From: a virus
IMG/VR virus record: IMGVR_UViG_3300029338_000356
Span: 42,633 to 106,632 of that record
Length of the DNA stretch: 64,000 bases
Reading direction: 5' to 3' (one strand)
Part shown: one piece after another, positions 32,906 to 49,146 of the stretch
Layout of the letters: each line of letters starts with the position of its first letter
Position numbering within the stretch: position 1 is the stretch's first letter
Notes under the pieces: generated by a model
The model's database searches: none
What the model was told of the DNA's origin: nothing
Seen by the model: the letters and a program-made list of their open reading frames with translations, nothing else
Translations under genes and position numbers: made by a program

Positions 32906-34636
32906 GTGAAAACCAAAAACCTGTTGAAGGCAACGGTCGCCACGCTTGTGGCCGGTGCCATGGGTTTGGCTGGAGTCGGCTCCGCCATGGCGGCTGATAC
33001 TCGTGTTGACGCATCCAAGCTTGGTGCGGCTGCTCGTCAGACGTTGACCGTCGCTGCTAATGGTGATATTAGCAATCGCACGTTGAAGGCTGTGCCGCTC
33101 GCCTACTATTCGTATGCGCAGACTGATGGCACTAATATTACCGGCTTTGACCTGATTGACGCGAGCAAGGCTTCTGCTATTGCTGACGCACTGACGAAAG
33201 CCCATATTGACACCCAGTCCAAGAAAGACCAGACTGCCGGATACGACTATAATGCGTCCAATCCGATGGTGTGGGTCGTGCAGAATCTCCTTGATTCCGA
33301 GAACAGTCCGTGGGCTGGCAAGCTTCGTGACTTCATCGACCAGTTGAAGAACGAGGCCGCCGTCACCGGCGACAAGGGCACCGCGTTCGCCAAGGGCGCC
33401 GACGCCAAGCATATGACCGCTTCTGTCCGTCCGGGCGTGTATGCGGTCGTGGACGCCACCAAGACCGGTCAGGCGTCCATCGTCATGTTCAACGGCACCG
33501 GCATCGACGGCAAGACCACGTTGAAGAACGGTGAAAAGACCTACACGCTGGGCACCGTGGACTATAAGGTGCATGACGCCGCAGTCAGGAAGGCTATCAC
33601 CTCTGTTGAGAATGGTGATGTGGATGAGAAAATCGGTGAGGACCATGAGGATGAGGGGGCTCGCCAAGCAGGGAAGAAATATTATGCGGTAGCCAAGACC
33701 TCCATCGGCAAGAAGGTCTCTTTCACGATGGGCGGCGCGGTGCCTGTTTGGACTGGCTACGACCATTATTATTATGCGCTCAACGATACGTATTCGGATG
33801 GTCTGACTTTCAACCCGGATAGTATGAATGTCACTGTCGGCGGTAAGACTTTGACTGCTGGCAAGGATTACAAGGTGACGACCGAGGCGGGCAAGTTCCA
33901 TATCCTGTTCGCCCCGACCGCTGATGGTTCTTCCGACATCATCGCCGCCAAGACCACGTTCCCGGTCGATGCGGAAGTGCTTGTCACTTATGACATGACC
34001 GTGAACAAGAACGCCCACGTGGACGGTGTTGACACCAACACGAGCGAGGTCGAATACTCCCATAATCCGAACACCGTCACCGACCATGAGAAGACTCCGG
34101 GCGACACCAACTACGTGTACGTCGGCAAGTTCACTCTGACCAAGACCGATACGAACAATGTTCCGCTCGCGGGTGCCGTGTTCAACATCAAGGATGCCAA
34201 GAGCAATATCGTCAAGTTCGTCAAGGTGGGTGATAACGAGTATCGTGTTGCCGACTCGACTGAGGCCGCTACCGCAAGCGCCGACATCACCACCACCGAT
34301 AAGAACAATGGCGTCATCACCTTGAAGGGCTTGTACGGTGCCTACACGGTGACTGAAACCAAGAGTCCGTTCGGCGGCAGCATTCTGCCGGAGTTCACTC
34401 TGACCGTTGGCGTGGCCCAGTCCAAAGACCATAACACCAGCACTTCGTCCCTCACCAAGTTCAAGGATGATGCCAACCATCTGGCCTCCAAGACCAGTGA
34501 CGATGGAGTGACCGTCATCAACGCCCGCAACATCGCTGACATGCCGAAGACCGGTGCGGTCTGGCTGTCCATCTTCGGCGTGATGACCGTCCTGTTGGCT
34601 GGCGCTTCCGCCCTGCTGCTTCGTCGCAAGGCGTGA
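32906..34636 (+). CDS. sortase-dependent major pilin (SpaA/FimA-like) with MPKTG sorting signal
   Basis: signal peptide, CnaB-type segments (AGAVFNIKDAK), E-box YTVTETKSPFGG, C-terminal DMPKTG + hydrophobic stretch + RRKA. Confidence 0.7.
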   Translation: MKTKNLLKATVATLVAGAMGLAGVGSAMAADTRVDASKLGAAARQTLTVAANGDISNRTLKAVPLAYYSYAQTDGTNITGFDLIDASKASAIADALTKAHIDTQSKKDQTAGYDYNASNPMVWVVQNLLDSENSPWAGKLRDFIDQLKNEAAVTGDKGTAFAKGADAKHMTASVRPGVYAVVDATKTGQASIVMFNGTGIDGKTTLKNGEKTYTLGTVDYKVHDAAVRKAITSVENGDVDEKIGEDHEDEGARQAGKKYYAVAKTSIGKKVSFTMGGAVPVWTGYDHYYYALNDTYSDGLTFNPDSMNVTVGGKTLTAGKDYKVTTEAGKFHILFAPTADGSSDIIAAKTTFPVDAEVLVTYDMTVNKNAHVDGVDTNTSEVEYSHNPNTVTDHEKTPGDTNYVYVGKFTLTKTDTNNVPLAGAVFNIKDAKSNIVKFVKVGDNEYRVADSTEAATASADITTTDKNNGVITLKGLYGAYTVTETKSPFGGSILPEFTLTVGVAQSKDHNTSTSSLTKFKDDANHLASKTSDDGVTVINARNIADMPKTGAVWLSIFGVMTVLLAGASALLLRRKA

Positions 34637-34771: not shown

Positions 34772-35677
34772 ATGGGAGGGGTTTTGGGAAAACATACGGC
34801 GAAACCGAAAGGCTTGGGAAATCGAGCCATAGCGGGACTTCTCTGCCTAATCCTATCCGCCCTGTCCGGAACCATCCCATTCATTCTCATGATTTCGAAC
34901 AGCAGCCAATCCAACCGGTTGACCGACTCCCACGCGCAAGCCGTGGAAAACACTGACGTGAAACGAATCGCCCAAGAGTATGCGGACGCGCAAGCCTACA
35001 ATCAACGCCTATACGAGGAAGGCCAGTCCATTCTTGGTGAGGCGGAAGACCCTTGGACAGGCGTCAACAAGTCCGAAACGGACAACACGTATCGGAAGCA
35101 ACTATCCACCCCCAAGGATGGGGTCATGGCCACCATCAAATATCCACGCTTGGGCATCAACCTGCCCATCCGGCATGGCACGTCGCAAAACGTGTTGGCC
35201 GCTGGAGCCGGACACTTATACGGTTCCAGTCTCCCCGTCGGCGGCAAGAACACGCATACTGTCATATCCGCGCACACGGGTTTGGCCGACCAGCTCATGT
35301 TCGACAAGCTACGCGGCTTCGGCAGTGAAGCCAAAAAAAGTGACGTCTTCTATCTGATAACCGCCGGACATACGCTCGCCTACAAGGTCACAAGCATTGA
35401 TGTGGTAGACCCATCCGATTTCACCAAACTGAAAATCGTCGCCGGAAAAGACCTCGCCACACTCCTAACCTGCACGCCATACGGCATCAACAACAAGCGA
35501 CTCCTAGTGACCGGCACGCGCACCAGCATGCCGCACCCCGCACCCAGACCCGAAAACGCGCCGAAAGACCACACGAACCAATGGCTCATACTGTACGTCG
35601 GCGGCTTCTGGCTTGCGGTAATCATCATCACCATTCTCATCATCCGTAGAAAAAACCACGCAAAGAAGGAACACTAA
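34772..35677 (+). CDS. class C (pilus-specific) sortase
   Basis: N-terminal TM, catalytic His (ISAHTG), TLLTCTPY catalytic Cys motif, C-terminal TM + basic tail. Confidence 0.85.
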   Translation: MGGVLGKHTAKPKGLGNRAIAGLLCLILSALSGTIPFILMISNSSQSNRLTDSHAQAVENTDVKRIAQEYADAQAYNQRLYEEGQSILGEAEDPWTGVNKSETDNTYRKQLSTPKDGVMATIKYPRLGINLPIRHGTSQNVLAAGAGHLYGSSLPVGGKNTHTVISAHTGLADQLMFDKLRGFGSEAKKSDVFYLITAGHTLAYKVTSIDVVDPSDFTKLKIVAGKDLATLLTCTPYGINNKRLLVTGTRTSMPHPAPRPENAPKDHTNQWLILYVGGFWLAVIIITILIIRRKNHAKKEH

Positions 35678-38600
35678 TGGGTATTCTCAAAAAGCATGTG
35701 GCACATCCGGTAGCATTATTGGCCGCAATCGCCACACTGGCATCCGGCCTGATATGCATGACCAATCCGGTAGCCTCTCCGAAAGCGCATGCGGACGAGT
35801 TGAAACCCGCATATGCTACTGCGAAAATCGTTAAGAAAGCCGACGGTACGGGGCATGGCACGAGTTCGCAAACGTTCGTGAATTCGAAGAACGGGTTCGC
35901 CACGGGCGATGATTCCCCTACCGATGGCGTGGTCGCATCCGGTGATACGGTCGAATATTCTCTCACGTTGAACTTCAACGCGGCGGGCAAGCGTACCATC
36001 AACGTGAAGTTCGACTTGGATGACGCGCCGTATTTGCAGACTGCTGACGGTGGTGGCTTCTGCCAGCCGGGACAACTCGTCACCGCGAAGAAAAACAGTG
36101 ACGGCTCCTGCTCCTACACGGTTCCAGCCGGTGGCGTGGAAACCATGACCCAAACCTTCTATCTGAAAGCAAAAGACACGGGAGGCTTGGTCAAGCCGGG
36201 TCAGATTCCGAAAATCGTCGTCGCCCGCGAAGGTGGAACGTCAACCACGTATCGTACGGATGAGCTGACTGTAGTATCCGCTCCGGCGGCTGACTTGGTC
36301 ATTGACAATGGCGGCAATCCGGTGAAAGGCCAATACTCGTATGAGTATCGTACTTATTGGAGTCAGAACACCGATGCGACCGGTGATTTCACTATTCGTA
36401 CCGACGCGTTGACCTATCCGGGTTATTCGTCCACGAAGGGCGCGTCCACCAGCATCGATTGGACTACCAAAGTGGATATTTCCGACTTCCCGCAGGGCAC
36501 CGTGTGGACTGTAGGCGGTCAGCGGATTACCCGTAACAGTGATAAAGAACAGTATTTGACCGTATCCAGTGGCAAAAACGGTGCGGCGGCGACAATCAGC
36601 TACAGGATTCCCGCCGGAACCGACGCGCTCAAAAACATGAAAGAAGGAGACGTCAAATATTACGATGTCCACCTTGTTCCCGACGAAACCGTGTTCAGCG
36701 TCAAAGACGATAACGGCGACGCACTGTTGAACATGGGCAAAGGTGGAGAACCCGGCTGGAACATTGGACGGGACAAGAGCACCTACAACAAGGATACGGG
36801 TGCCCGCGTTGGCTACCCGTACGCGAACAATGACTGGTCACGAGCCATTATCCAACGGCTCAAGCCGACTCCAGCTGGCAAGATTCCACTGTTCGGCAAA
36901 GGACTGCAACGGCCTAACACTGCGTCCAAGACCATGTTCGACAAGGAGAATCTGACGTTCGACGCCGCCGAAGGCAAAGCCGACATCTACCATTACTATT
37001 CCGACGGTTCCGGCGACACCGTGTCCCGTGGAACGCAAGTCAAAACCATTTTGGAAATGTATGCGGCGAACGTTACGGCGGACAAGCTTAAAAACACTAC
37101 GCCGACCATGCAGGACGAGTGGGATAATACGCGCATGCGGTGGGATGGAAGCTTGGAAGTCACCCAGAACGGCGCTCCGGTTTCCGACTACAAAGTTCAA
37201 TGGGCTGATAGCAAAGACAATTGGCATGACGGGGAACCATCCGACACGGACGCTCCGAACGTCAAGAAGATTCGGGTGACGTTCAACCCCGACGCTTTGA
37301 CTTTGGGAAAGGGTGCGCCGAACGTTCAGGTCACGTTCAACACGCTCGCCATAGCCGACGTGTCCAAAGGCAATGTGGAAGCTTTGGATACGCTGACCGC
37401 ATGGCTTACCGAAGACGATAAGGCGAGCGTCACCAATTGGGTGTGGATTGCCAAGCCGGTAGACCCGACCACCAGTATCGACATCAGTCTGAAAGCCTAC
37501 GATGGTGAAGGCAATCAAGTGTATGCGAACAACAGTTCCAATCACCCGTCCGGAAGCGCAGTCGATTTGATTCCCGGCATGCGAGTGGATTATACGGTCA
37601 CGGAACAGTTGCGCACCATTCTCCTGTCCAATACGAGCATGACGCCGACCATCACGGTGCCGAAACCGAAAGGCTTGTACAATCCGACCTGTGATGATTC
37701 GTTCTGGCAGATGAAAGTGGACGGGAATAATCTCGTGTTCACGCCACGTTCCGGCAAAGTCACGCCTGAAGTAGACCGTATGGGGTCGGCCACTTTGCCT
37801 GACCTGCATTTCAGTGGCATCGTATCCAATCTCGCCACCGGGACTGTCACCGCCAGTGCGAATATGAGCGTGGACGTTGACGAGAACGGCGCATTGCAAG
37901 CCCAAACCATCAAAAGCAATACGCCCAGCGTCCCATTCCCTGTCTCCAATGCGGAAACCAACAGTGGCATCATGCGCGTGAAGACCACGAAGGCTGAAAT
38001 CAGTGACCCGCTTACTTGGGAGTTCAACGTGTACGGCAAGGGCGGCGGCCATACCGGCACCATGGATAGCATGCTACTGCTTCCTGCGAATGGTGATGAG
38101 AAGTACGTGCAGGACAAGCTGGTCGAATATGAGCGTGGATACAGCAACTATCATGGCTCCTACGAACTGACCCAGCCCGTCACGGTCAATATGGACAATT
38201 CGACCAGTACGACCGTCTACTATTCAACCACCACCGGAAAGAAGTCGGATAATCCGGCTGACTACGAGTGGAAGACATGGGATGAATTGTCCGCCATCGA
38301 GAAGAAGAACATCACCGCCATCCGACTGACCAGCACTGTCGTCGCGTCTGACGATAAACTGTCCTATTCGGCGGTGAACGGCACCATCACGCTCATCCCA
38401 TCCGACAATGTGAAAGACGACAAGTACACGCTGTGGCTTGGCCGCAACTATTATTCCGACGCTTCCGACAAACCGGCGGGCAACCAGCCGTGGCCTGACG
38501 TGGCGAAGGTAGTGTCCGGTAGTATCAGCGGTACCGTCTGGTGGGATAAGGATGAGAACACGCTCATCGGAGACGGTGAGGAACGTATCGAAGGAGTGGA

Positions 38601-41061
38601 AGCCGCCCTCGACAAGCAGGATTCAAGCGGCGGCTGGCAGACCGTCAAAACGGTGAAGACCGACAAGGACGGCCATTACGAGTTCGACCTGCTCCACTCC
38701 GGCACCTACCGCACTTCGGTGAAACGCAACACTGGCACCAGTACGGGTGATGGCGTGCAGACGCAGGTCAAAACCTACTACAACAAGCTCGAAGACGTGG
38801 TGAACACGCGCAGCTGGTCGAACAAAATCAAGTCCAACGCGAAAGACACGTCCGACGACATCCACCTAGGCATCGGCGCAGACCAGAAGAACGTGGACTA
38901 CGGTTACGCGAAACCAGACCCGAAAGCCACCGTGGACAAAACCGTCACCGGCACCAGTTGCACTGATACGAAATGCGTCATCAACTGGGATGTCAAAGTA
39001 CAGAATTCTGGCACTAGCCGTTTTGACACGTCCAGTGTCGTTTCTGACCGTATGAGCGCTGATGTGCATGATGTTTCCGCTACCGCCGGTACGGTTTCCA
39101 TCGAATCTGGTGGCGCGAAGCAGGTTGCGACGAGTGGCGACCATAAGTTTGTGTTGACGAGTGAGGGCTTGTTGTATGCGTGGGGTAATAACCAGTATGG
39201 TCAGCTTGGTTTCAAGCCTGACACGACGAATTCTGCCACTCCAATGAACGTGAACAAGCCGACCATCATCAACGGTAGTTGGCTGAAAGTCGCCGCCGGA
39301 GGCAAGCATTCCGCCGCCATCAGCACGGACGGACACTTGTATACGACTGGTTGGAATGGTAGCGGCCAATTGGGTACGGGTGATACGGATAATCGTGACC
39401 AGTGGACGGAAGTCGCTTCGGATAAAACATTCATTGACGTGGCATGCGGCAACCAGTTCACCGTCGCTATCGCAAGCGACGGCACTTTGTGGGGTGCTGG
39501 AAACGCTGTAAGCTATCAGAACTATGCGACTTGGACGCAAATCGGTTCTGATGTCAAGTTCACTCAACTCAGTGCAAGCATGGACGGTTTCATCGCATTG
39601 AACACATCCGGCAGATACCTGTACTACGGTACAGATGTTCAGGGGCAGGGCGCTGGCGGTTATACGCAAGTCGCCGCCGCGTTCGGTCGAATGTATGCGT
39701 TGAAAAATGATGGGACGGTGATTCAGGTTGCCACAACCTATGATGACTCTTATTCGCCTAACTTGTCCGGTTTGAAGGACATTGTGAAAATCAGCGGCGG
39801 ATACAATACCCTGTACGCCATCGACAAGAACCAGCACTTGTGGTCTATGGGTTGGAATGGTGACGGCCAGTTGGCTAACGGTCAGACCGGTAGTGGCACG
39901 TATTGGACGGACGGTAGTACGAGTGGCAATAAGGATATTGTCTACACACCGTTCGATACGAACATTATCGCATCCGACGTGGCGGGTGGCGACCGTGATG
40001 TGCTCATTCTTGGCAAGCAGGTCATGATTGCGGGCTTCGACCCGTATGGTGACGGTAAGACGGGTGGCGCGCGTTCCACCGGTTTGAAAGGCATGGCCGT
40101 ATCGTCCGACCCAACCGCCGTACCTGTCGAACCATCGAGCGAAACCACTAAGAACGGGTTGACTACCCGCACATACAATCTGCCATACAGTATTGAGCCG
40201 GGCGGCTATGTCATCTACCATTTCACCGGCACCGTTGACCGTGATATTACGGATACGACAAAGTGGGAACTGTCCGATATTGACAAGTGGGTGAAAGAGC
40301 ATACGAAGACCATTCTCAACCAAGCATGGTTCGACTCCGAACACACACCATACTCGGGCACGCCGCACGCAAGCGGCAAAACCAAGCCGAACACTCCGGA
40401 CGCTACGAAACTGGATGCCAACACGAATGATGTGACCGGCAATCCGACCTGCCGCACCGACACGGACTATACGGAGGAAGGACGCCAACACTGGTTCAGC
40501 ACGTCCGATGAGGACTCCTGCGACCAAGTCGGCATCATCATCACACCAACCACCACCGCGAAGAAACTCGGTTCCATCAGCGGCCTGTATTGGGAGGACA
40601 CCAACAAGAACGGCATTCAAGATGAAGGTGAGAACACGCATTTCGCCGGTCAAACGGTCATTCTGACTGACGAGAACGGCAAACAGTTGGCAACCACCAA
40701 GACCGACAAGGATGGCAAGTACATTTTCGAACGTCTGGACGCGAACGGCAACAAATACCGTATTCAATTTACCAAAGTGAACCACCGGGACTTCACCACG
40801 CCGGATGTGGGAGACAAGACTCCTGCGACGGATGGAAGCTCCACCGATTCGGACGCTTACACGGACGAAGACAACAAGCTGACCATTACCCTCACCCAAG
40901 ATGCTCCAACCAAGGAGCATGTGGATGCGGGTGTCCTGCCTGAAACATGGTTGGCGACCATGCCGCACACGGGCATGGGATTGCTGTTGCCGCTCCTCAT
41001 GCTCGTCAGCGTCAGCGGACTCGTCACGGCAATCATCCTCCTACGAAAGAAGGAAGAATAG
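35677..41061 (+). CDS. pilus tip adhesin-like large surface protein: signal peptide, RCC1-type beta-propeller repeats, CnaB/SdrD-B-like domains, MPHTG sorting signal
   Basis: 1794 aa; RCC1 repeats (LYAWGNNQYGQLG, LYTTGWNGSGQLGTG, LWSMGWNGDGQLANG), CnaB (GSISGTVWWDKDEN...DKDGHYEF; GSISGLYWEDTNKNG...DKDGKYIF), C-terminal MPHTG+TM+LRKKEE. Confidence 0.7.
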   Translation: MGILKKHVAHPVALLAAIATLASGLICMTNPVASPKAHADELKPAYATAKIVKKADGTGHGTSSQTFVNSKNGFATGDDSPTDGVVASGDTVEYSLTLNFNAAGKRTINVKFDLDDAPYLQTADGGGFCQPGQLVTAKKNSDGSCSYTVPAGGVETMTQTFYLKAKDTGGLVKPGQIPKIVVAREGGTSTTYRTDELTVVSAPAADLVIDNGGNPVKGQYSYEYRTYWSQNTDATGDFTIRTDALTYPGYSSTKGASTSIDWTTKVDISDFPQGTVWTVGGQRITRNSDKEQYLTVSSGKNGAAATISYRIPAGTDALKNMKEGDVKYYDVHLVPDETVFSVKDDNGDALLNMGKGGEPGWNIGRDKSTYNKDTGARVGYPYANNDWSRAIIQRLKPTPAGKIPLFGKGLQRPNTASKTMFDKENLTFDAAEGKADIYHYYSDGSGDTVSRGTQVKTILEMYAANVTADKLKNTTPTMQDEWDNTRMRWDGSLEVTQNGAPVSDYKVQWADSKDNWHDGEPSDTDAPNVKKIRVTFNPDALTLGKGAPNVQVTFNTLAIADVSKGNVEALDTLTAWLTEDDKASVTNWVWIAKPVDPTTSIDISLKAYDGEGNQVYANNSSNHPSGSAVDLIPGMRVDYTVTEQLRTILLSNTSMTPTITVPKPKGLYNPTCDDSFWQMKVDGNNLVFTPRSGKVTPEVDRMGSATLPDLHFSGIVSNLATGTVTASANMSVDVDENGALQAQTIKSNTPSVPFPVSNAETNSGIMRVKTTKAEISDPLTWEFNVYGKGGGHTGTMDSMLLLPANGDEKYVQDKLVEYERGYSNYHGSYELTQPVTVNMDNSTSTTVYYSTTTGKKSDNPADYEWKTWDELSAIEKKNITAIRLTSTVVASDDKLSYSAVNGTITLIPSDNVKDDKYTLWLGRNYYSDASDKPAGNQPWPDVAKVVSGSISGTVWWDKDENTLIGDGEERIEGVEAALDKQDSSGGWQTVKTVKTDKDGHYEFDLLHSGTYRTSVKRNTGTSTGDGVQTQVKTYYNKLEDVVNTRSWSNKIKSNAKDTSDDIHLGIGADQKNVDYGYAKPDPKATVDKTVTGTSCTDTKCVINWDVKVQNSGTSRFDTSSVVSDRMSADVHDVSATAGTVSIESGGAKQVATSGDHKFVLTSEGLLYAWGNNQYGQLGFKPDTTNSATPMNVNKPTIINGSWLKVAAGGKHSAAISTDGHLYTTGWNGSGQLGTGDTDNRDQWTEVASDKTFIDVACGNQFTVAIASDGTLWGAGNAVSYQNYATWTQIGSDVKFTQLSASMDGFIALNTSGRYLYYGTDVQGQGAGGYTQVAAAFGRMYALKNDGTVIQVATTYDDSYSPNLSGLKDIVKISGGYNTLYAIDKNQHLWSMGWNGDGQLANGQTGSGTYWTDGSTSGNKDIVYTPFDTNIIASDVAGGDRDVLILGKQVMIAGFDPYGDGKTGGARSTGLKGMAVSSDPTAVPVEPSSETTKNGLTTRTYNLPYSIEPGGYVIYHFTGTVDRDITDTTKWELSDIDKWVKEHTKTILNQAWFDSEHTPYSGTPHASGKTKPNTPDATKLDANTNDVTGNPTCRTDTDYTEEGRQHWFSTSDEDSCDQVGIIITPTTTAKKLGSISGLYWEDTNKNGIQDEGENTHFAGQTVILTDENGKQLATTKTDKDGKYIFERLDANGNKYRIQFTKVNHRDFTTPDVGDKTPATDGSSTDSDAYTDEDNKLTITLTQDAPTKEHVDAGVLPETWLATMPHTGMGLLLPLLMLVSVSGLVTAIILLRKKEE

Positions 41062-41075: not shown

Positions 41076-42005
41076 ATGGGCGAACACGCCACACAACATG
41101 GGAGCCGCCATACGGTTCGGCGGCTCCTCGCCAGTCTCGCCATCATGAGCGCGGTCTGCGGCGGCTTCCTCACCGGTAGTGCAATAGCCGCCGAACCAGC
41201 CAAATGCAATACTGGCGTGGACAAGGTTTGCTACGCGGGCTATAATGCGGCGGGTTTGAAACAGATTGCCGACGATTTGAGCGAGAAAGGTAAGGGAAGC
41301 ACATACTATGCCGCAATGGAAGACAATCTGACCAAAGGTACGGCGGGTTTCCTCACCTTATCGGACGGTTCGAATCTCCCATTCCGACTCATCGGCATCC
41401 TCCACGACGACAATGCCGACGGAAGTGGACGGGAAGCAGGATTGACGTTCATGGCTTGGAACGCGTTACCGAAAGCGTATGCCATGAACAATAGTTACAC
41501 CAATAGGGGCGGCTGGCGTGACAGTCTTCTTCGCAATCAGATGAACAATGGTGAAATCTGGAACCAATTCCCCACGGACTTCCAAAACAATGTCACACCC
41601 GTGTTGAAACAAACCAACAACATGGCCTACGGAAGCGCAAGCGGTTCAAGCGCGTCAGCCACAGCGGACAAAGTATGGCTCGTCTCCTACCGTGAACTCG
41701 TGTCCACTATGCATGACGGTTGGAAGACCTACGGTGGTTTTCAAGCGTGGAGTCAGGAGGGAAGTCAATACGAGTACTTCAGCGGCAAGGTGACGAACAA
41801 CTATTCGGGTAATGGCATTCTCTCCGGCATTTACAAAACCGTTTCCGGTTCCACTCCTCTTGGTGCTGGCATCAACCGTTGGTGGGAGCGTTCGCCCTAC
41901 CCGGACTACGGCAACTATTTCCTCCAAGTGAACTCGAACGGCGACCCCAGCTACGACAGCTATGCTAACTATCGCTACTCCGTTGTCCCCGCTTTCTCCT
42001 TCTAA
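41076..42005 (+). CDS. DGR target protein (secreted; C-terminal variable region)
   Basis: signal peptide RRLLASLAIMSAVCGGFLTGSAIAAEPA; last ~55 codons match the downstream TR except at TR adenines; start at internal Met of ORF 40947..42005. Confidence 0.75.
   Translation: MGEHATQHGSRHTVRRLLASLAIMSAVCGGFLTGSAIAAEPAKCNTGVDKVCYAGYNAAGLKQIADDLSEKGKGSTYYAAMEDNLTKGTAGFLTLSDGSNLPFRLIGILHDDNADGSGREAGLTFMAWNALPKAYAMNNSYTNRGGWRDSLLRNQMNNGEIWNQFPTDFQNNVTPVLKQTNNMAYGSASGSSASATADKVWLVSYRELVSTMHDGWKTYGGFQAWSQEGSQYEYFSGKVTNNYSGNGILSGIYKTVSGSTPLGAGINRWWERSPYPDYGNYFLQVNSNGDPSYDSYANYRYSVVPAFSF
41838..42002 (+). repeat. DGR variable repeat (VR)
   Basis: 165-bp alignment to TR (offset 798 bp); ~17 mismatches all at TR adenines, concentrated in AAC codons (VR GGC/ATC/CGT/TAC/GAC/TAT/AGC vs TR AAC/AAT). 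Confidence 0.85.
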
Positions 42006-42017
42006 TCCCCAATCCTT

Positions 42018-42044
42018 GGGTGGTGGGGTTCATCCCCACCACCC
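42018..42044 (+). other. GC-rich hairpin immediately 3' of VR (DGR homing-enhancing stem-loop candidate)
   Basis: GGGTGGTGGGG-ttcat-CCCCACCACCC perfect 11-bp stem ~13 nt after the target stop codon. Confidence 0.6.
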
Positions 42045-42077
42045 CTCCAAACTCAAATCTCACACAAAAGGAGTCCT

Positions 42078-42593
42078 ATGACGGTTCCCGCAAGCAAACG
42101 TACAAAAGCCAGAAGCGAATATGCGAATCAGGCCAGAATCGTGCTCTTGGCTACCAGAAATCTGTTCCGCAAGTGGCCTAAAAGCCGTAACTGTATTGAA
42201 ACCGTGCATGTCATGCATATCGCCTATGAAATGTACTCTTCCGCCTACAGTGCCGACATCATTTATGCGAACACAATCGAGGAACATGAGATGAAACTGC
42301 AACTGTTGTGCAAGGCCCAAGGCATGTTGAACTCACTCTCCGGTCTTGTGGACGATTGGATGGAGTTTCCTCCACGGGAAAAAGACTTGGAAGTCTACAG
42401 GAAATATCCGGAAGGCGACCCCAGATACAATCCCGTCGTCAAGGAGAAGAAATTCGTGAACTATGCGGGAACCATCTACAAGGCGATGGGCGTGTTCACC
42501 GGAGCCGTCAAGTATGAGCGAGACCAGTTGAAGAAAGCTAAAAACGCCGAGTCGAAAACGAACACTATAATGGATACTCGGGCGCAAGCCTAA
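42078..42593 (+). CDS. avd: accessory variability determinant (Avd)-like small helical protein
   Basis: 171-aa basic ORF between target gene and TR, the canonical Avd position; predicted all-helical. Confidence 0.55.
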   Translation: MTVPASKRTKARSEYANQARIVLLATRNLFRKWPKSRNCIETVHVMHIAYEMYSSAYSADIIYANTIEEHEMKLQLLCKAQGMLNSLSGLVDDWMEFPPREKDLEVYRKYPEGDPRYNPVVKEKKFVNYAGTIYKAMGVFTGAVKYERDQLKKAKNAESKTNTIMDTRAQA

Positions 42594-42635
42594 AATATAA
42601 TTGAACAAAATCGGCCATATCCAAACTATGGTGAC

Positions 42636-42800
42636 ACCGTTTCCGGTTCCACTCCTCTTGGTGCTAACAACAACAATTGGTGGGAGCGTTCGCCCAACCC
42701 GAACAACAACAACAATTTCCTCCAAGTGAACTCGAACGGCGACCCCAGCTACAACAACAATGCTAACAATCGCTACTCCGTTGTCCCCGATTCCTCTTAC
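42636..42800 (+). repeat. DGR template repeat (TR)
   Basis: non-coding copy of VR, adenine-rich (12 AAC/AAT codon-equivalents); lies between avd and RT. Confidence 0.85.
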
Positions 42801-42984
42801 CAAAAACTAACATCAGATAGGCCAGTAGTCCAATGGGTGAAAGCCTCCCGAAGGGGAAGGGGATATGGTCGAATGCGCGGCCCCTCGAAAAATGGGTTGC
42901 GTGTGAAAATAGGTTGAGGGAGATATTAAGACTGTCGGAAACGACGGATACTCGCCCCTTAAGCTGGGCGTCCAACATCATTGC

Positions 42985-44214
42985 ATGTCTTGGGTTGTTG
43001 CCGACGACCTGCCCTCAACCATTCTTTTCTCTTTCCCTAGTGAAGGAAGCATTAAAATCGTGAATGCGAGTCAAAGACGTAGAAGACGCCAACGCAGACT
43101 GCAACAACGCTCGGATGATAAGTACAGGAAGCTCCACCGTTACATCGACTTCCAACAAACATTCGGATTCGACGCGCTCTACCAAGCCGCAAGAAAATGC
43201 AAACGCGGCGTCACGTGGAAAAACACAGTGTTGAACTTCGACAATAGGCGTGCCGTCAACTGTTGGAAACTCGCCCAAGAATTAGAGGACGGCACATACA
43301 AGAAGAGAGCGCCAATCCGATTCGACATTTCCGAACGTGGCAAGCTTCGCCATATCAGCGCGGTCTCATTCCGAGACCGGGTGGTGCAACGCGCTCTGTG
43401 CGATAACAGTCTTGTACCCATCGTGGAAAGCCAACTGATATATGATAATGCGGCGAGCCTTCCGAAACGTGGAACATCGTTCGCCCGAAAACGGTTTGAA
43501 CTACACTATAAGCGGGCTTTGGGTAAATGGGAGCATCCGTATGCTGTCATATTCGACTGTTCCAACTATTTCGGCAGTATCAGCTCCCAACGCGCGTTCG
43601 ATATGATTTCCACCCTGTACCGGAGTATCGCCCGCACCGGACGGGAGAAGCAGGATGTGGAACGGATTCTAACCGTATTGAGAATCTTCGTATTGGACGA
43701 ACCCCACTTAGGGTTAGGTAATCAGACGAGCCAAACCATAGCTATCTGGTATCTGAACAAGGTTGACCACTGGTGCATGTCGCAAGGATTCTACGGACGG
43801 TACATGGACGATGCCTACTGTTTCTGCAAGAATCGTGAACAGGCCGAACGTGTGCTGGCCGGTTATGAGCGGCGTGTCAATCAATTGGGATTGCGGTTGA
43901 ACAAGCATAAGACCCGCATAGTGGACTGTCATACCGGTCAACTCACATTCCTGAAACGCGTATACAGTGTACAGGATGACGGCAGTATTCTTATCCGCAT
44001 GCACCATAAGGCGTTGCGTGCAAGCCGACGGCATGCGCGTAACCTTATCCGCTCATATGATGGCGTGCATGTGGGATTGCGGACAGTTCAGGATTCTTGG
44101 ACGAGCCATGAGAGCACACTGTCGGGTCTAACTCACCGTCGTGGACTGTACGCTCGGGAGAAAGCGTGGTATCGGAGGCATTGTGAAATGCGGAAGCTGG
44201 CTTTTCACCCGTGA
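42985..44214 (+). CDS. DGR reverse transcriptase
   Basis: RT motifs incl. YMDDAY (YxDD) and the DGR-specific LGLGNQTSQ (I/LGxxxSQ); N-terminal LYQAARKCKRGVTWK typical of DGR RTs; true start may be GTG ~43060. Confidence 0.9.
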   Translation: MSWVVADDLPSTILFSFPSEGSIKIVNASQRRRRRQRRLQQRSDDKYRKLHRYIDFQQTFGFDALYQAARKCKRGVTWKNTVLNFDNRRAVNCWKLAQELEDGTYKKRAPIRFDISERGKLRHISAVSFRDRVVQRALCDNSLVPIVESQLIYDNAASLPKRGTSFARKRFELHYKRALGKWEHPYAVIFDCSNYFGSISSQRAFDMISTLYRSIARTGREKQDVERILTVLRIFVLDEPHLGLGNQTSQTIAIWYLNKVDHWCMSQGFYGRYMDDAYCFCKNREQAERVLAGYERRVNQLGLRLNKHKTRIVDCHTGQLTFLKRVYSVQDDGSILIRMHHKALRASRRHARNLIRSYDGVHVGLRTVQDSWTSHESTLSGLTHRRGLYAREKAWYRRHCEMRKLAFHP

Positions 44215-44538
44215 TATTCCGGACTTTCCAGATTGTGTGGTGGAGGGGCGTAATCTGCTGGAAGCTTTGGATGGGACGAGAAAAAGATTGTCCGTCCGAT
44301 TAGCAGAAATGGTGGCGCAGAATCTTCCGCTTCCTCAAGAGAGTCGTTGGATGAGATTTCGTGCGGCTTGGATTGCATCGTATTCCACATCGGCATGCTT
44401 ATCGGCTAGTTTTTCTTCCCGGCTTGGTGTTACACTGGGTTTACTTGCATTTCCTTCCTCGGGACTTCGCCCATGTGGGGCTTTAGAGGTTATCGGCGCA
44501 TTGGTTAGAGTATGCCGTTTGAGTGAAAGGAAACTGTC

Positions 44539-45150
44539 ATGGCAGGTTTTGATGATATTACGGTCACTCGCAGTGATGGCCGTTTGAAGGTTAAGGCTCC
44601 GTATAATCCGTTGTTTGCCCGTCGCTCCCGCGCGTTGGGCGGAACGTTTGATGACAAGTCGAAGACTTGGACGTTCGATATGCGTGTGGAAAGGCTGGTG
44701 TTCGAAGCTTTAGACAAATATTTCTGGTGGCATAAGGGCGTGGACGCTGAAAAGCGTGTCACAGTCACCATCGACCCCTACGACTACTTGTACGCGTACT
44801 CCAAGCAGGATAGCGACATTATCTGGTTCGCTGGTCGAATCCTAGTCGAAAAATATCAGCCCGACCGTCCACCGCGCATGATGCCGAATGTGGCTCTCGT
44901 GGATGGCATGTGGCCTAAAACCGGCTTGTATACGGGGTTGAATCTCATTCCCGACAAACTCCGATTATTGGTATGGGATGTTCCCACCAGTTTTCTGGAA
45001 CGATTGTCGTCCGGCAAGTATGAGTTGTCTGAGCCGGATGGTGATACGTTGACTGCGGTTGACGTTCGTATTCAGGCTGTGGAGGAACGGTTAGGCCGGT
45101 TGAGGGAACTCCGAACCCGACTCGCCTCTAATAGTGAGGATGGTGAATGA
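44539..45150 (+). CDS. hypothetical protein
   Basis: 203-aa ORF downstream of RT, 4-bp overlap with next ORF. Confidence 0.45.
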   Translation: MAGFDDITVTRSDGRLKVKAPYNPLFARRSRALGGTFDDKSKTWTFDMRVERLVFEALDKYFWWHKGVDAEKRVTVTIDPYDYLYAYSKQDSDIIWFAGRILVEKYQPDRPPRMMPNVALVDGMWPKTGLYTGLNLIPDKLRLLVWDVPTSFLERLSSGKYELSEPDGDTLTAVDVRIQAVEERLGRLRELRTRLASNSEDGE

Positions 45151-46154
45151 TGCTCTCCGTGCCGATTGATGGTCAAGTCCAGTCGCGTCTCATTCCGCCC
45201 ACGTTCGTGGAAGACAACATCAGCGACATGTTCAAGGCTGTGGACGCCGGACACAATATCGTCGTGACGGCAGTGGACGAGTACGGTAATCGAACCAGTA
45301 TTACCACGCCGGATAATGTGAATCATGACATGCTGGGGCGTCCTCTCGAATTCGCGTCCCATCCCGTACTGATGCGGAATGTGCGCCGTTGGATGGTTTG
45401 GCTGTTGCAAGCGCAATACTGCAAGGATTACAAGTGGGATACGAACAGGCTTGGAGGTTGGATGGAAGTGTTGGGTTTACCAGCCGACCTTGATATTCCC
45501 GTAACGGAGGAACATTTACGCGTGTTGAAGCCTGTGTTTAACAAGGATGATGCCGACCCGTATCGGCTTGTCGCACGATACGACAGGCAACATTATGCTT
45601 CATGCACCCTCGGCACTCTCATACGGTTAGCTGAACAAACCACGCCAAATTATGCCTTGAACAATCCCACCCGCTGGTGCCAAACCGACCGATACCGCAA
45701 ACTCAGCATCCAACCCAATCCAAAAGAAAACTGGGACGGAATGGACAGGGTACGCGACTGTTGGAGCGGATGCGAATGGGCATACCCCGCATTGGAACGC
45801 TACTATAATCCGATTCGACTATTACGAGACGAATACCGGCGGGGAGGACTACCTGAAACCTTCCACTATCCAATACACACGACAAGAGGAGAATACCGGT
45901 TGGCGAAAGGACAAATCAGCCCCCACGCAACAATCCTCCTCAACGGCAAGCCCGTAGGACTCATGTTCAGCGACGATTGCGAGGAACCATTCACCGACCG
46001 GATACCACCCGAATGGTGCGCCACACCCTTACCGGAAAACTATAAGACCACGCCACTCAACCGAAACATTCCCGTAAACGGCGAATTCAAACCATCGTTC
46101 CAGCAAGCCATGCTGGGATTCGTGGAATGGTATGAGAAAACGCACAAGGGATAG
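45147..46154 (+). CDS. hypothetical protein
   Basis: 335-aa ORF. Confidence 0.45.
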   Translation: MMLSVPIDGQVQSRLIPPTFVEDNISDMFKAVDAGHNIVVTAVDEYGNRTSITTPDNVNHDMLGRPLEFASHPVLMRNVRRWMVWLLQAQYCKDYKWDTNRLGGWMEVLGLPADLDIPVTEEHLRVLKPVFNKDDADPYRLVARYDRQHYASCTLGTLIRLAEQTTPNYALNNPTRWCQTDRYRKLSIQPNPKENWDGMDRVRDCWSGCEWAYPALERYYNPIRLLRDEYRRGGLPETFHYPIHTTRGEYRLAKGQISPHATILLNGKPVGLMFSDDCEEPFTDRIPPEWCATPLPENYKTTPLNRNIPVNGEFKPSFQQAMLGFVEWYEKTHKG

Positions 46155-47043
46155 CAAAAAGAAAAGCCCCTCGATTGAGGGGCTTTTTAGTAAATGTCAC
46201 CTTATGTTTTCTCGATTTATGTTGGCGAAGATGCGTGACCCGTTGCCCATTCGCTGGTCGCGCACCCTGCCACGCAAAAGCCGTCCGTCCAGCGTGACCG
46301 TCAGCTTGGACGCGGCTGGACGTTGGCACGTCAGCATACTGGTCGAAGATGCCATCCTCCAACCAGCCAAGAATGGAAACATGGTCGGCATCGACATGGG
46401 ATTGGAACACTTCGCCATCCTCAGCAATGGTGAGAAAATCGACAATCCACGCTATTTGAGACACCATTTGAAAAAACTTCGACTGGCGCAGCAGAAACTC
46501 GCCAAGAAAAAGAAAGGAAGCAACAATTATCGCAATGCCCGTTTGAAAGTGGCGAAGGCATACGCGAAGGTCAAGGATTGTCGTACCGACTTCCTGCACA
46601 AGCTCTCAACCAGAATCATCCGTGAAAACCAAACGGTAGTCATCGAGGACTTGAAGGTACGGAACATGAGCCGACGTTGCAAGCCGAAACCAGACCCGGA
46701 CAATCCGGGCCATTACCTTCACAACGGGCGGAAGGCTAAAAGCGGTCTGAACAAAAGCATTCTGGACGCAAGCTGGCGACAGTTCCGCACCATGCTTGAA
46801 TACAAGGCAGAATGGTACGGTCGCCAGCTCACGGTCATCGACCAATGGTATCCCAGCAGCCAAATCTGCCACACGTGCGGCAAAAACACCGGCATTAAGA
46901 CATTGGACGTCAGAACATGGCAATGCCCATACTGCCACACCATGCAAAACCGTGATATCAACGCCGCCGAAAACATACTATCCGCCGGACTGGCGGTACG
47001 AGCCTGCGGGGATTCACGCCTCACCGAAGCGACACTCCGGTGA
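46132..47043 (+). pseudogene. tnpB: 5'-truncated TnpB (IS200/IS605 OrfB) remnant
   Basis: retains RuvC-I GIDMGLEHFA, RuvC-II, Zn finger CHTCG...CPYCH and RDINAAENIL but lacks the ~90-aa N-terminal region present in the 4093..5292 copy. Confidence 0.7.
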
Positions 47044-47150
47044 ACAAAAGCGCGTGAATCACACCAACCTACAGGAAACTCTTCCCCGCGAGGGGAGGAA
47101 TCCCCCGACTTCAGTCAGGGGAGGAAGTCAAAATAAATATAAAGACTATA
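47040..47150 (+). ncRNA. omega-RNA / IS right-end-like structured region downstream of truncated tnpB
   Basis: CCCCGCGAGGGGAGGAATCCCCCGACTTCAGTCAGGGGAGGAAGTC with paired GGGGAGGAA/CCCC elements directly 3' of tnpB stop. Confidence 0.35.
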
Positions 47151-47260
47151 ACGGTTTAAAAAGACGTGTTGAGAAAAGTCTTTTCTGCCTCATTGGGGTA
47201 TCTTGTGTCTTTTTCTTAGAAGTTTCACTCTACCGATTTGCTTTGTTGTCAAAGTATATA

Positions 47261-47283
47261 TATACTGGGATTGTTCACACAAG
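47261..47283 (+). promoter_or_regulatory. conserved promoter motif copy 1 (TATACTGGGATTGTTCACACAAG)
   Basis: extended -10-like TATACT plus conserved GTTCACACA leader, 28 bp upstream of ATG 47311. Confidence 0.55.
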
Positions 47284-47310
47284 AAATAAGCGTAACAAGG
47301 AGAGTCAAAA

Positions 47311-47625
47311 ATGAACAAGCCCGCATACTTCAAGCAGTTCGGCGCAGACGACTACAACATTTTCGTAGTCAAGGACAAGTCGTATGTCATGAGTCGTTTC
47401 ACAGACGACCCCGAGGGCGTCTACTACATGCTTTTCGAGCATGTCGAGGGTCAGACCGGCGTCAGCTATTACATGTTAGACAATATTCCCGAGACTGTTT
47501 TGGATGATGTTTCCGACGGTGGATATACCGATAGGGAGTTTGCTTCGAGGATTGTCGGTCAGGATAGGTTTGTCCACAATATTCATATCCGTATGCTTCT
47601 GCGTCATTCCGCAATTGGTGCCTGA
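47311..47625 (+). CDS. small protein, family 1 (paralogue of 53811..54119)
   Basis: shared FGA.DYNIF...SYVM.R...YF.LFEH.EG..GV...M.D core. Confidence 0.5.
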   Translation: MNKPAYFKQFGADDYNIFVVKDKSYVMSRFTDDPEGVYYMLFEHVEGQTGVSYYMLDNIPETVLDDVSDGGYTDREFASRIVGQDRFVHNIHIRMLLRHSAIGA

Positions 47626-47732
47626 GTTTTTTTGGGTGGATAACGCTCTTCTTGTCTTTTGGCTGGGAGGGCGTTTTTTGTTTTCTGGGGGTTGTTTGTG
47701 TGTTTTTGGGCGTGTCGTTTTCACAGACACTA

Positions 47733-47755
47733 TATACTGGGATTGTTCACACAAA
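47733..47755 (+). promoter_or_regulatory. conserved promoter motif copy 2
   Basis: TATACTGGGATTGTTCACACAAA upstream of 47784. Confidence 0.55.
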
Positions 47756-47783
47756 AAGATAAAAGAAAACCAAGGAGCAAAAA

Positions 47784-48608: not shown

Positions 48609-48613
48609 CTTTT

Positions 48614-48656
48614 CAGCCCGCTTCCTTGCTTTGGGGAGTGGGCTGTTTTTGTTTTT
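48614..48656 (+). terminator. intrinsic terminator
   Basis: CAGCCCGCTTCCTTGCTTTGGGGAGTGGGCTG hairpin + TTTTTGTTTTT. Confidence 0.6.
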
Positions 48657-48670
48657 CACAACAAACATGG

Positions 48671-48693
48671 TATACTGGGATTGTTCACACAAA
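48671..48693 (+). promoter_or_regulatory. conserved promoter motif copy 3
   Basis: TGGTATACTGGGATTGTTCACACAAA. Confidence 0.55.
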
Positions 48694-48718
48694 AAATACC
48701 AACAAGGAGGAACAAAAA

Positions 48719-49096: not shown

Positions 49097-49109
49097 CCGT
49101 CGGGTTTTA

Positions 49110-49146
49110 GCGCCTCTCCCTTGGGTGGGTGGGGCGCTTTTTGTTT
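49110..49146 (+). terminator. intrinsic terminator
   Basis: GCGCCTCTCCCTTGGGTGGGTGGGGCGC + TTTTTGTTT. Confidence 0.5.

Follow-up and report, generated by a model that had tools for sequence, protein, structure and literature searches.

Does the 3' end of a secreted-protein gene, repeated in non-coding DNA ahead of a reverse transcriptase (RT) gene, belong to a complete diversity-generating retroelement (DGR), and what would such an element diversify in the last gene of a pilus operon? The window, i.e. the whole stretch of 64,000 nucleotides that was analyzed, contains target gene with VR, hairpin, accessory gene, TR and RT in exactly the canonical order that the original prediction had proposed. 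With high confidence, the locus is an intact and complete DGR. Its components and the upstream operon genes are as follows.

32906..34636, + strand: sortase-dependent pilin, backbone subunit, at the start of the operon (Pfam GramPos_pilinBB, E 9e-19; SpaA)
34772..35677, + strand: sortase (Pfam Sortase, E 1e-20)
35677..41061, + strand: 1794-aa surface protein (Pfam RCC1, RCC1_2, WD40_RLD, SdrD_B; C-terminal MPHTG)
41076..42005, + strand: DGR target gene, secreted DUF6273 protein of 309 aa
41838..41991, + strand: VR, adenine-mutagenised core, encoding target residues 255-305
41992..42005, + strand: IMH-like 3' tail of the VR, stop codon included
42018..42044, + strand: GC-rich DNA hairpin (stem of 11 bp, TTCAT loop) following the VR
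42078..42593, + strand: accessory gene, sequence-divergent protein with predicted Avd fold, 171 aa, pI 9.39
42636..42789, + strand: TR, non-coding, 43 adenines
42790..42803, + strand: IMH*-like tail of the TR
42804..43059, + strand: conserved non-coding TR-RT spacer, presumed 3' part of the DGR RNA
43060..44214, + strand: DGR reverse transcriptase, GTG start at 43060 preceded by GAAGGAAG

The VR/TR pair and the reverse transcriptase

The repeat search recovered a direct repeat of 168 nt (41838-42005 vs. 42636-42803; 88% identity) with the predicted spacing of 798, and a second TR-like copy is absent from the entire 64-kb window. The ungapped core of 154 nt (41838-41991 vs. 42636-42789) contains 15 mismatches, all 15 located at TR adenines; the core TR comprises 43 adenines, and none of the 111 non-A positions is altered (Fisher one-sided p = 6.2e-10). 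The adjacent tail (41992-42005 vs. 42790-42803) differs at five of its 14 positions (41992, 41995, 41999, 42001, 42003), only two of which (41992, 42001) correspond to TR adenines. The initial estimate of about 17 differences, all at adenines, thus holds for the core but is slightly overstated for the last 11 nt of the range to which it referred: positions 41838-42002 exhibit 19 mismatches, 17 at TR adenines and two elsewhere (41995, 41999). Judged from their sequence, these 11 nt seem to behave like an IMH/IMH* tail. The adenine specificity is not confined to the window, as five additional cognate pairs of VR and TR, taken from related loci, exhibit 14-25 A-mismatches each and at most one (0-1) at other positions. 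Read in the frame of the VR, the TR comprises 17 AAY codons and eight other adenine-containing codons, and a stop codon cannot arise from A-substitution. About 25 residues within the last 55 aa of the target can be randomized, which corresponds to a theoretical number of 10^25 protein variants.

The RT harbors the predicted YMDD and LGLGNQTSQ motifs and matches Pfam RVT_1 and the RT family phrog_1423 (E 4e-55). Among the PDB entries, Bordetella Brt (8ub7_A; E 2.4e-13, 30% identity) matches best, and its best plasmid matches are RTs adjoining annotated avd genes and FGE-type targets. In a neighbor-joining (NJ) tree with a small sampling of four DGR RTs and three group II RTs, retron RTs being left out, it groups with the DGR RTs and is separated from the group II RTs with a bootstrap support of 100/100, as the prediction required. 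The motif LGLGNQTSQ aligns with the DGR signature [LIV]GxxxSQ, whereas group II RTs exhibit QGxxxSP. An in-frame ATG at position 42985 represents an alternative start of the RT gene. The search for a promoter provided no signal above chance.

An ordinary partial gene duplication in the neighborhood of an unrelated RT from a group II intron, retron or defence system would offer a trivial explanation of the repeat. Indeed, the best NCBIfam match by name is a group II intron RT/maturase, at 88.9 bits against a cut-off of 300 bits, and there are weak matches to DRT-type defence RT models. The defence scores are all far below their cut-offs, an Rfam search found neither an intron RNA nor a retron ncRNA, and the RT falls among the DGR RTs, away from those of group II, with SQ instead of SP in motif 4. 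The adenine-only mismatches and their recurrence in related loci speak against a mere duplication. This scenario, contradicted by the A-specific pattern, the RT clade and the sub-threshold defence scores, has a negligible probability.

Accessory protein and putative target-site elements

The ORF between target and TR had been described as basic, helical and Avd-like. The first two attributes proved correct (pI 9.39), but the likeness to Avd has no counterpart at the sequence level, where Pfam, NCBIfam, phmmer against PDB and hhalign were all negative. The protein matches neither Pfam PF05635 nor the NCBIfam model 'diversity-generating retroelement protein Avd'; among the 21 members of its family there is not a single Pfam or NCBIfam match, and the Pfam Avd model remains silent even at E up to 1. 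Profile comparison of the 42078..42593 ORF with hhalign gave no significant match to Avd (probability 0.2% vs. bAvd; 0.55%, E 0.1 vs. four canonical Avds). The predicted fold provides a different picture: the best four PDB matches are Avd-family structures, including the Avd of the Bordetella phage. Four-helix bundles are common folds. In the present case, the model describes a small basic four-helix-bundle protein that is encoded within a DGR, next to its TR and RT. All four distant homologues (23-33% identity) are flanked by a target on one side and an RVT_1 RT on the other, and the two homologue loci examined in detail (L020, L021) harbor A-specific VR/TR pairs. That the accessory gene encodes an Avd-fold protein is suggested by the fold prediction, the basic charge, the location of the gene and its conserved association with DGR RTs.

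According to a survey (PMC5758913), 29% of DGRs lack a catalogued accessory gene and were proposed to be Avd-independent. If the 171-aa protein represents a cryptic Avd subfamily, some of these DGRs may carry cryptic Avds, and the alignment of the accessory family can be used to re-examine DGRs annotated without accessory gene.

The tails of VR and TR have a fixed length of 14 nt, and five positions distinguish VR from TR in all loci. The VR tail GCTTTCTCCTTCTAA is identical in nine of nine VRs, and its TR counterpart GATTCCTCTTAC(C/T)(A/G)A hardly varies among the TRs; by analogy with BPP-1, they would represent IMH and IMH*. The hairpin at 42018-42044 has the predicted stem of 11 perfectly paired bp and a loop of 5 nt and starts 13 nt past the TAA stop codon (42003-42005). 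Folded as DNA it has a dG of -14.7 kcal/mol (z = -5.5), and none of 200 shuffled sequences folds as well. Compensatory variants are present in L013 (GGTGGGTGGGG/CCCCACCCACC) and L019 (GGGGGTGGGG/CCCCACCCCC), and L020, L021, L023 and BPP-1 have hairpins with unrelated sequences at the equivalent site. In analogy to known systems, tail and hairpin are putative target-site elements of retrohoming. The TR-RT spacer is almost invariant across ten related loci; it has no Rfam match and no thermodynamic signal (z -1.1), and presumably provides the 3' portion of the DGR RNA.

The locus resembles the DGR of BPP-1 (mtd-avd-TR-brt) in its identical gene order, a VR that occupies the very 3' terminus of the gene for a CLec-fold target, the A-specific VR/TR differences, the divergent 3' tail that tells VR from TR, the GC hairpin shortly past the target stop codon, and an RT with 30% identity and an aligned xGxxxSQ motif. 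It differs in its location on a plasmid of a Gram-positive host instead of a phage and in its target, which is a secreted DUF6273 protein of a pilus operon instead of a tail-fibre protein. Further differences are the accessory protein, which has 171 aa, a beta-hairpin insert and no detectable sequence similarity to the BPP-1 Avd (128 aa), the hairpin (11 bp and 5-nt loop vs. 8 bp and GAAA) and the spacer of about 256 nt.

The mechanism can be outlined by analogy with BPP-1; what we tested is the presence of the components and the A-specific VR/TR pattern. RT and the basic Avd-fold protein would bind a transcript spanning the TR and the downstream spacer, the RT would copy the TR into cDNA with misincorporation opposite template adenines, and this cDNA would be substituted for the VR in the 3'-terminal part of the target gene. 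The IMH-like VR tail and the GC hairpin would define in which direction the replacement proceeds and where it ends.

Diversity of the VR and recent activity

Our comparison of nine VRs, i.e. the one of the window and eight from human-gut metagenomes, showed that 39 of the 43 TR-A columns are variable, compared with seven of the 111 non-A columns, and several of these seven track TR polymorphisms. The TR itself is nearly invariant across 11 loci. TR polymorphisms (columns 115, 129 and 135) recur in the VRs of the same loci, that of column 115 in the VR of only one of two cognate pairs, which is consistent with an information flow from TR to VR.

The cassettes L008 and L009 from different samples and contigs differ in 21 of 5451 aligned bases. 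Seventeen of these differences are located inside the VR, 16 of them at TR adenines, and only four are found in about 5300 flanking bases. This concentration in the VR is indicative of recent activity of the element. L008 and L010 are identical in avd and TR and exhibit a single difference in the 1410 nt of spacer and RT, yet 22 in the VR. Both between-sample comparisons point to a recently active DGR.

The locus could alternatively be a frozen relic, whose VR diversity dates back to an ancient diversification followed by ordinary descent. Relics of this kind do exist: TR and RT are gone from two B. pseudocatenulatum isolates (L017, L018) and from B. moukalabense (L019), in which the target with a diversified-looking VR and the hairpin persist. 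Nevertheless, every component is intact in the window, the RT belongs to a 90%-identity cluster with 930 members, and the accumulation of differences in the VRs of L008, L009 and L010 next to virtually unchanged flanks is difficult to reconcile with ordinary descent. We therefore regard a relic as very improbable and retain the interpretation of a recently active DGR.

Pilus operon, host element and known systems

The operon consists of pilin, sortase, the 1794-aa RCC1/SdrD_B surface protein and, in the last position, the DUF6273 target. The pilin terminates with a sorting signal (...MPKTG, a hydrophobic stretch and RRKA), and the combination of this GramPos_pilinBB/SpaA pilin with a Sortase-domain gene is characteristic of a probable sortase-pilus operon. 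The 1794-aa protein may form the pilus tip or represent a large adhesin; an RCC1/SdrD_B-type protein also directly precedes the DUF6273 gene in L017, L019 and L023. The target has a DUF6273 domain with a predicted C-type-lectin-like fold, in line with the lectin fold initially proposed, and the model places the VR in the ligand-binding part. It contains neither an LPXTG-like sorting signal nor a pilin motif that would identify it as a pilus subunit, and its C-terminus ...VVPAFSF directly follows the VR. Across homologues, the cysteine of its signal region is not maintained, a point against attachment as a lipoprotein. An association of the target with the pilus is suggested by the conserved gene order, which is the basis for this proposal. 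The variable DUF6273 protein is likely a ligand-binding adhesin that works with the pilus, and the DGR would allow the plasmid-bearing population to sample new binding specificities.

The element is probably a Bifidobacterium megaplasmid of roughly 217 kb, distantly related to pMP7017. Contigs carrying it have a size of 207-231 kb, the size class of pMP7017-type megaplasmids (KM406416; B. longum 169-198 kb), and recur in many human-gut assemblies. The expected high-GC Gram-positive host is probably Bifidobacterium, because B. pseudocatenulatum isolates carry an 87%-identical operon (85% for the target homologue). RepA is 36-38% and an 886-aa ATPase with distant similarity to type IV coupling proteins 59% identical to the equivalents of pMP7017 and B. 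longum megaplasmids; at the DNA level, there is no similarity to pMP7017-type plasmids. DUF6273 gene and RT are both absent from the pMP7017-type plasmids in PLSDB and the module was therefore acquired as an accessory. In cultured B. pseudocatenulatum isolates, the operon is present with the DGR deleted, showing that the latter is dispensable. No phage genes adjoin the target.

The presence of the operon and its DGR on an element related to pMP7017, a conjugative megaplasmid, raises the possibility that variable adhesin and pilus serve the plasmid itself, namely in recipient recognition for conjugation or aggregation, as a plasmid analogue of phage tropism switching. This proposal accepts the DGR as real and agrees with the accessory acquisition of the module and with L021, a remote representative of this DGR lineage that directly adjoins TraG/VirD4 and TrbL genes. 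However, these four operon genes, together with a DGR remnant, are also located among housekeeping genes on the chromosome of B. moukalabense (L019), and DUF6273 domains are elsewhere found in phage receptor-binding or decoration proteins or as part of an IgA protease. We accordingly consider a function for the plasmid improbable.

The joint reading that the 171-aa protein is an Avd subfamily invisible to sequence models and the DUF6273 lectin an exchangeable pilus specificity module is tentative and, taken as a whole, rather doubtful. If true, the lectin would be a non-covalently attached, exchangeable specificity module of a plasmid-encoded sortase pilus; it could determine which host glycans or partner cells are recognized and perhaps also which recipients the megaplasmid can enter. 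This would amount to tropism switching by a plasmid in a major commensal of the infant and adult gut. Bifidobacteria are key gut colonizers and probiotics, and their pili have been implicated in host interaction. A widespread hypermutation device aimed at a pilus-operon lectin implies that adhesion specificity may change much faster than by ordinary mutation in some Bifidobacterium populations, and the DGR offers one explanation for strain-level differences in colonization. The locus represents a tractable Gram-positive DGR, with cassette-deleted isolates as natural 'off' variants.

The original prediction overstated the novelty of the system, since DUF6273 targets, DGRs of Bacteroides pilus adhesins and DGR-like pairs of bifidobacterial prophages have already been reported. 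The locus is a new example of a well-known mechanism, which it leaves unchanged, and not a new kind of system; its notable features are the putative sequence-cryptic Avd subfamily and the Gram-positive pilus-operon context. C-lectin-like DUF6273 proteins are known DGR targets of gut phages, including tentaclins, Mtd-like proteins and Faecalibacterium prophages (PMC10743442, PMC11792537, bioRxiv 10.1101/2024.10.15.618418), and the combination of DUF6273 and a C-terminal VR has been published as a target type (PMC10743442, PMC11792537). Studies on Faecalibacterium prophages and Toutatisvirus localized the VR at the C-terminal end of the DUF6273 domain, PMC10743442 placed it in a surface beta-hairpin, and some gut-phage relatives keep the target without a DGR. 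These targets are structural or decoration proteins of Firmicutes phages, whereas ours is a stand-alone secreted protein in the pilus operon of a bifidobacterial plasmid.

Bacteroides DGRs diversify type V pilus adhesins, and their location on ICEs, plasmids or prophages was examined (bioRxiv 10.1101/2024.11.15.621889); the abstract of this preprint names adhesive pilus components only and the text does not mention DUF6273. Common to both systems are the gut commensal host, the mobile element and the pilus-associated adhesive proteins, but the Gram-negative type V pili contrast with a Gram-positive sortase-assembled pilus whose variable protein lacks a sorting signal. In the same genus, RT/tail-gene pairs of bifidobacterial prophages were proposed as DGRs (PMC8705816). 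They share with our locus an RT beside a putative variable surface or receptor-binding gene; they are prophage-borne with adjacent tail genes and quoted with no VR/TR analysis, in contrast to the plasmid-borne, pilus-linked element with a computed A-specific VR/TR pair described here. TvpA of Treponema denticola and TaqVP of Thermus, two DGR variable proteins whose structures have been solved, represent the FGE-like subclass and exhibit only 9-11% identity with the target over the aligned residues.

Architecture and adenine pattern of the cassette

The region 41076-44214 carries a target gene, a hairpin, an accessory gene, a template repeat (TR) and the gene of a reverse transcriptase (RT) in this order, and both the coordinates and the description in the original prediction are correct, since repeat, ORFs and hairpin were all found as described. 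The element is a canonical diversity-generating retroelement (DGR) of architecture B.

ORFs and repeat of the DGR cassette
41076-42005, plus strand: target ORF, 309 aa
42078-42593, plus strand: accessory ORF, 171 aa
42636-42803, plus strand: direct-repeat copy of the target gene's 3' end, non-coding
42985/43060-44214, plus strand: RT ORF with alternative starts

A repeat search recovered a 168-nt direct repeat with 88% identity and a spacing of 798 nt (41838-42005 versus 42636-42803). Ungapped comparison of its first 154 nt revealed 15 mismatches between the variable repeat (VR) and the TR, and all 15 are located at adenines of the downstream non-coding copy. The TR core comprises 43 adenines; at its 111 remaining bases VR and TR agree throughout (0/111 differ; Fisher p 6.2e-10). 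In the remaining 14-nt 3' tail, VR and TR differ at five positions of mixed type; the tail is uniform across all VRs of the related loci and separately near-uniform across their TRs, and it behaves as would be expected of an IMH/IMH* pair. The claim that all mismatches fall on TR adenines accordingly stands for 17 of the 19 in 41838-42002, but not for two, both in the tail. The 17 AAY codons of the TR cannot be converted into a stop codon by adenine substitution, and the theoretical repertoire computed from its adenine codons amounts to ~10^25 proteins. A search of the window found no other TR-like copy, extra VR or remote target. By analogy with Bordetella phage BPP-1, the TR would be transcribed together with the spacer, an RT-Avd complex would prime and synthesize cDNA with misincorporation at adenines, and the VR would be replaced under the direction of IMH and hairpin.

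In the hairpin (42018-42044), a fully paired 11-bp stem closes a TTCAT loop; folded as DNA, it has a free energy of -14.7 kcal/mol, and none of 200 shuffled sequences folds equally well. Its conservation is documented by compensatory stem variants in the window (GGGTGGTGGGG/CCCCACCACCC), the related locus L013 (GGTGGGTGGGG/CCCCACCCACC) and the Bifidobacterium moukalabense chromosome L019 (GGGGGTGGGG/CCCCACCCCC), and three distant DGRs (L020, L021, L023) exhibit GC-rich hairpins of unrelated sequence at the same position. A classical terminator was rejected because the stem is not followed by a T-run. The hairpin occupies the place that corresponds to the 8-bp/GAAA hairpin of BPP-1 3' of the mtd stop codon, for which Guo et al. 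are said to have described a role in target recognition in 2011, and this is by analogy its likeliest function here. The spacer between TR and RT has no Rfam match and its fold energy is no better than that of shuffles (z -1.1); related loci are too alike in this spacer for covariation. The promoter and terminator scan gave no signal better than chance. A weak Rfam match to Phe_leader on the minus strand (46157-46213; 31 bits versus a gathering score of 55, E 0.034) is almost certainly due to chance.

Reverse transcriptase and accessory protein

The RT matches Pfam RVT_1 and a phage RT family of PHROGs (E 4e-55). Its best PDB sequence match, near full length, is 8ub7_A (E 2.4e-13), the Brt of the Bordetella phage (direct comparison with brt of AY029185: 30% identity, E 2e-17), and the five PDB matches with E < 1e-3 include no named group II intron RT. 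The best PLSDB matches are RTs on plasmids of Acaryochloris, Prosthecochloris, Vibrio and others; in all three loci that were opened, the RT directly follows an annotated 'diversity-generating retroelement protein Avd' beside FGE-family targets. In a small neighbour-joining tree, a 100/100 split sets three group II intron RTs apart from the window RT, which falls with four annotated DGR RTs and three RTs from related loci. The RT contains the motif LGLGNQTSQ; the corresponding stretch reads [IL]P[IL]G[NS]LTSQ in DGR RTs and QGxxxSP in group II RTs. Split, SQ motif and Brt match corroborate the proposed placement in the DGR clade, apart from group II RTs. Identification as a group II RT or as a defence-system RT was rejected, with all group II as well as DRT and defence-RT model scores far under their cut-offs. 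A scan of GTDB species genomes found no relatives of the RT. GTG 43060, which is preceded by GAAGGAAG, is the more likely start, whereas ATG 42985 has no such site.

The accessory protein has no match in Pfam, NCBIfam or PADLOC and none in a phmmer search of PDB sequences; an exhaustive HMMER pass retrieved only 30 relatives among 1.84 billion representatives. The Pfam Avd model matches none of the 21 aligned family members, PHROGs yielded a weak match to a family of unknown function, and tblastn against phages gave nothing. The hhalign comparison with bAvd of BPP-1 (probability 0.2%) is not significant, nor is that with four aligned canonical Avds (0.55%); the latter nonetheless runs full length, with WPKSR paired with the Avd xPRxxK motif and the insertion skipped. 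By sequence, the protein thus falls outside the annotated Avd family. In the confident AF2 model (pLDDT 88.9), four helices (H14-30, H35-61, H67-96, H123-170) form a bundle into which a short beta-hairpin is inserted at residues 100-119, and the pI of 9.39 compares with 9.55 for bAvd and with a published Avd average of 9.5 +/- 0.7 (PMC5758913). The same study termed avd genes 'very poorly conserved' and classed 29% of DGRs as lacking an accessory gene.

Four distant homologues (family alignment: 23-33% identity) are each located directly upstream of an RVT_1 RT and, wherever the contig reaches that far, directly downstream of a target gene, which documents the linkage of this gene to DGR RTs. 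Mismatches of the flanking repeats fall on TR adenines in 22 of 23 cases in L021 and 16 of 17 in L020. The designation 'Avd-like' is hence backed by predicted fold, pI and genomic linkage, but not by any sequence search including hhalign. We conclude from the structural and contextual evidence that the accessory protein probably has the Avd fold and works like Avd; it would represent a new, rare Avd-fold subfamily undetectable by sequence models.

Diversification and loss across related loci

A scan of metagenome contigs for exact matches to a conserved 29-nt stretch of the repeat identified 13 loci, several of them on contigs of 207-222 kb; the named records are from human gut. From related loci, eight additional VRs and ten additional TRs could be read. 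The TRs are near-identical, whereas the VRs vary at 39 of the 43 TR-adenine columns versus 7 of the 111 others. In three of these seven (columns 115, 129 and 135) the TR itself is polymorphic and VRs of the same locus bear the TR variant, for column 115 in only one of two cognate pairs; such shared polymorphisms fit an information flow from TR to VR. Five further cognate VR/TR pairs show 14-25 adenine mismatches each and zero or one other. Between the loci L008 and L009, which stem from different assemblies, 17 of the 154 VR positions differ, 16 being TR adenines, yet the remaining target gene (385 nt compared), accessory gene, TR, spacer and RT are identical (21 mismatches in 5451 aligned bases in total). 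L010 matches L008 exactly in accessory gene and TR, but their VRs differ at 22 positions. These comparisons provide strong indirect evidence at the sequence level for recent VR diversification.

Several deviations were observed outside the VRs. The target body (41076-41837) of L008 and L010 shows 27 scattered differences per 762 nt that are not adenine-specific, compared with one per ~1926 nt of accessory gene, spacer and RT; this suggests recombination or diversifying selection independent of the DGR. Single substitutions at TR adenines are present in L006 (A31G; 445-612), L011 (A61G; 528-695) and L002 (A to C; minus strand, 223-390), and could be ordinary mutations or reflect occasional self-targeting of the TR. 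In the low-coverage contig L005 (1-1500), the upstream flank of the target is joined straight to an unmutated repeat of TR type with TR tail, followed by spacer and RT, and the accessory gene is skipped; this junction reflects either VR and TR collapsed during assembly or a genuine deletion by VR/TR recombination.

Two B. pseudocatenulatum isolate assemblies (L017/L018, 8965-9530) are homologous to the window up to 42235 and again from ~49171. Still present are the pilus operon, a VR carrying non-AAY codons, the hairpin and 52 accessory-gene codons. A ~6.9-kb deletion (window 42236-49170) has taken out the greater part of the accessory gene together with TR, RT and ~5 kb further downstream, where two uncharacterized ORFs and a TnpB gene were lost. 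On the B. moukalabense chromosome (L019, 9000-9070) only the variant hairpin and the first nine accessory codons (MTVPASKRT) are left. Its DUF6273 gene was initially considered as a DGR-free native operon gene, a reading rejected because this downstream remnant marks a deleted DGR; the association with the DGR is therefore older than first read. The two cases are independent DGR deletions, each of which froze the VR.

Target, pilus operon and plasmid host

The VR encodes residues 255-305 of the secreted 309-aa DUF6273 target, with an invariant WWERS strand between variable loops, and the predicted fold is C-type-lectin-like, as had been proposed. DUF6273 proteins with the VR at their C-terminal end are known C-lectin-like DGR targets in gut phages (PMC10743442, PMC11792537). 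The protein ends straight after the VR without a sorting signal; lipoprotein anchoring was rejected because the Cys of the signal region is not conserved. Three genes precede it on the same strand.

Pilus operon upstream of the target
34590-34636 (sorting signal), same strand: pilin with GramPos_pilinBB and SpaA, C-terminal MPKTG
Upstream, same strand: sortase
40960-41061 (sorting signal), same strand: 1794-aa RCC1/SdrD_B protein, C-terminal MPHTG

Both sorting signals are of the form MPxTG instead of the usual LPxTG. A large RCC1/SdrD_B protein directly followed by DUF6273 is also found in L017, L018, L019 and the distant metagenomic DGR locus L023, and this gene order suggests that the variable protein may act with the pilus.

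Two isolate assemblies of B. pseudocatenulatum encode a protein with 85% identity to the target, which indicates that the host is Bifidobacterium. The backbone comprises the following genes.

Backbone genes
3042-4067, minus strand: GmrSD_C nuclease
7495-8484, minus strand: RepA_C replication protein, 36-38% identity to RepA of pMP7017 and B. longum megaplasmids
15554-18214, minus strand: 886-aa ATPase, 59% identity to the pMP7017 homologue
19860-21074, minus strand: ParA-like ATPase
24162-25118, minus strand: AAA ATPase
29937-31277: DnaB
31329-32726: SPFH protein

The 886-aa ATPase has homologues of likewise 59% identity on B. longum plasmids (169-198 kb) and shows a more distant resemblance to type IV coupling proteins. 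Three large ORFs have no Pfam match (10513-14517, minus strand, 1334 aa; 18667-19863, minus strand; 27786-29549, plus strand, 587 aa). The relationship to the conjugative megaplasmid pMP7017 is visible by protein-level searches only; a megablast comparison of the cassette and 50 kb of the window with PLSDB plasmids and INPHARED phages gave no match. Unlike the window element, pMP7017-type plasmids lack target and RT. Because element-bearing contigs cluster at 207-231 kb, recurring across samples, and have neither a PLSDB DNA match nor a target/RT-bearing counterpart among pMP7017-type plasmids, the element looks like part of a separate, undescribed bifidobacterial megaplasmid lineage bearing the pilus/DGR module.

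The supposed rarity of such DGRs needs qualification. DUF6273 targets are known, pilus-linked DGR targets have been described in Bacteroides (bioRxiv 10.1101/2024.11.15.621889), annotated PLSDB plasmids already carry DGRs, and RT genes beside tail genes of Bifidobacterium prophages were proposed as DGRs (PMC8705816), but the Gram-positive sortase-pilus context is new, as are the element itself and the lineage of its host plasmid. The searched literature contained no paper joining DGR, Bifidobacterium and sortase, and titles and abstracts revealed none on this type of megaplasmid in B. pseudocatenulatum.

Directly 3' of the RT lie two overlapping, apparently translationally coupled ORFs (44539-45150, 203 aa; 45147-46154, 335 aa) without a match in Pfam, NCBIfam or PADLOC; the former matches phrog_18108 of unknown function (E 4e-8). 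Both were deleted along with the DGR in the isolates and are not located 3' of the RT in L021. Two genes encode IS200/IS605-type TnpB, an RNA-guided endonuclease (46132-47043, plus strand; 4093-5355, minus strand); the match of the former begins at model position 105 of 389, so that its N-terminus is probably truncated. L017 has a TnpB gene near the deletion. The distant DGR of L021 (1-7000), which belongs to the same RT and accessory lineage, has a target of > 1673 aa built of 753-nt tandem repeats with a C-terminal VR, and directly adjoins TraG/VirD4 and TrbL conjugation genes.
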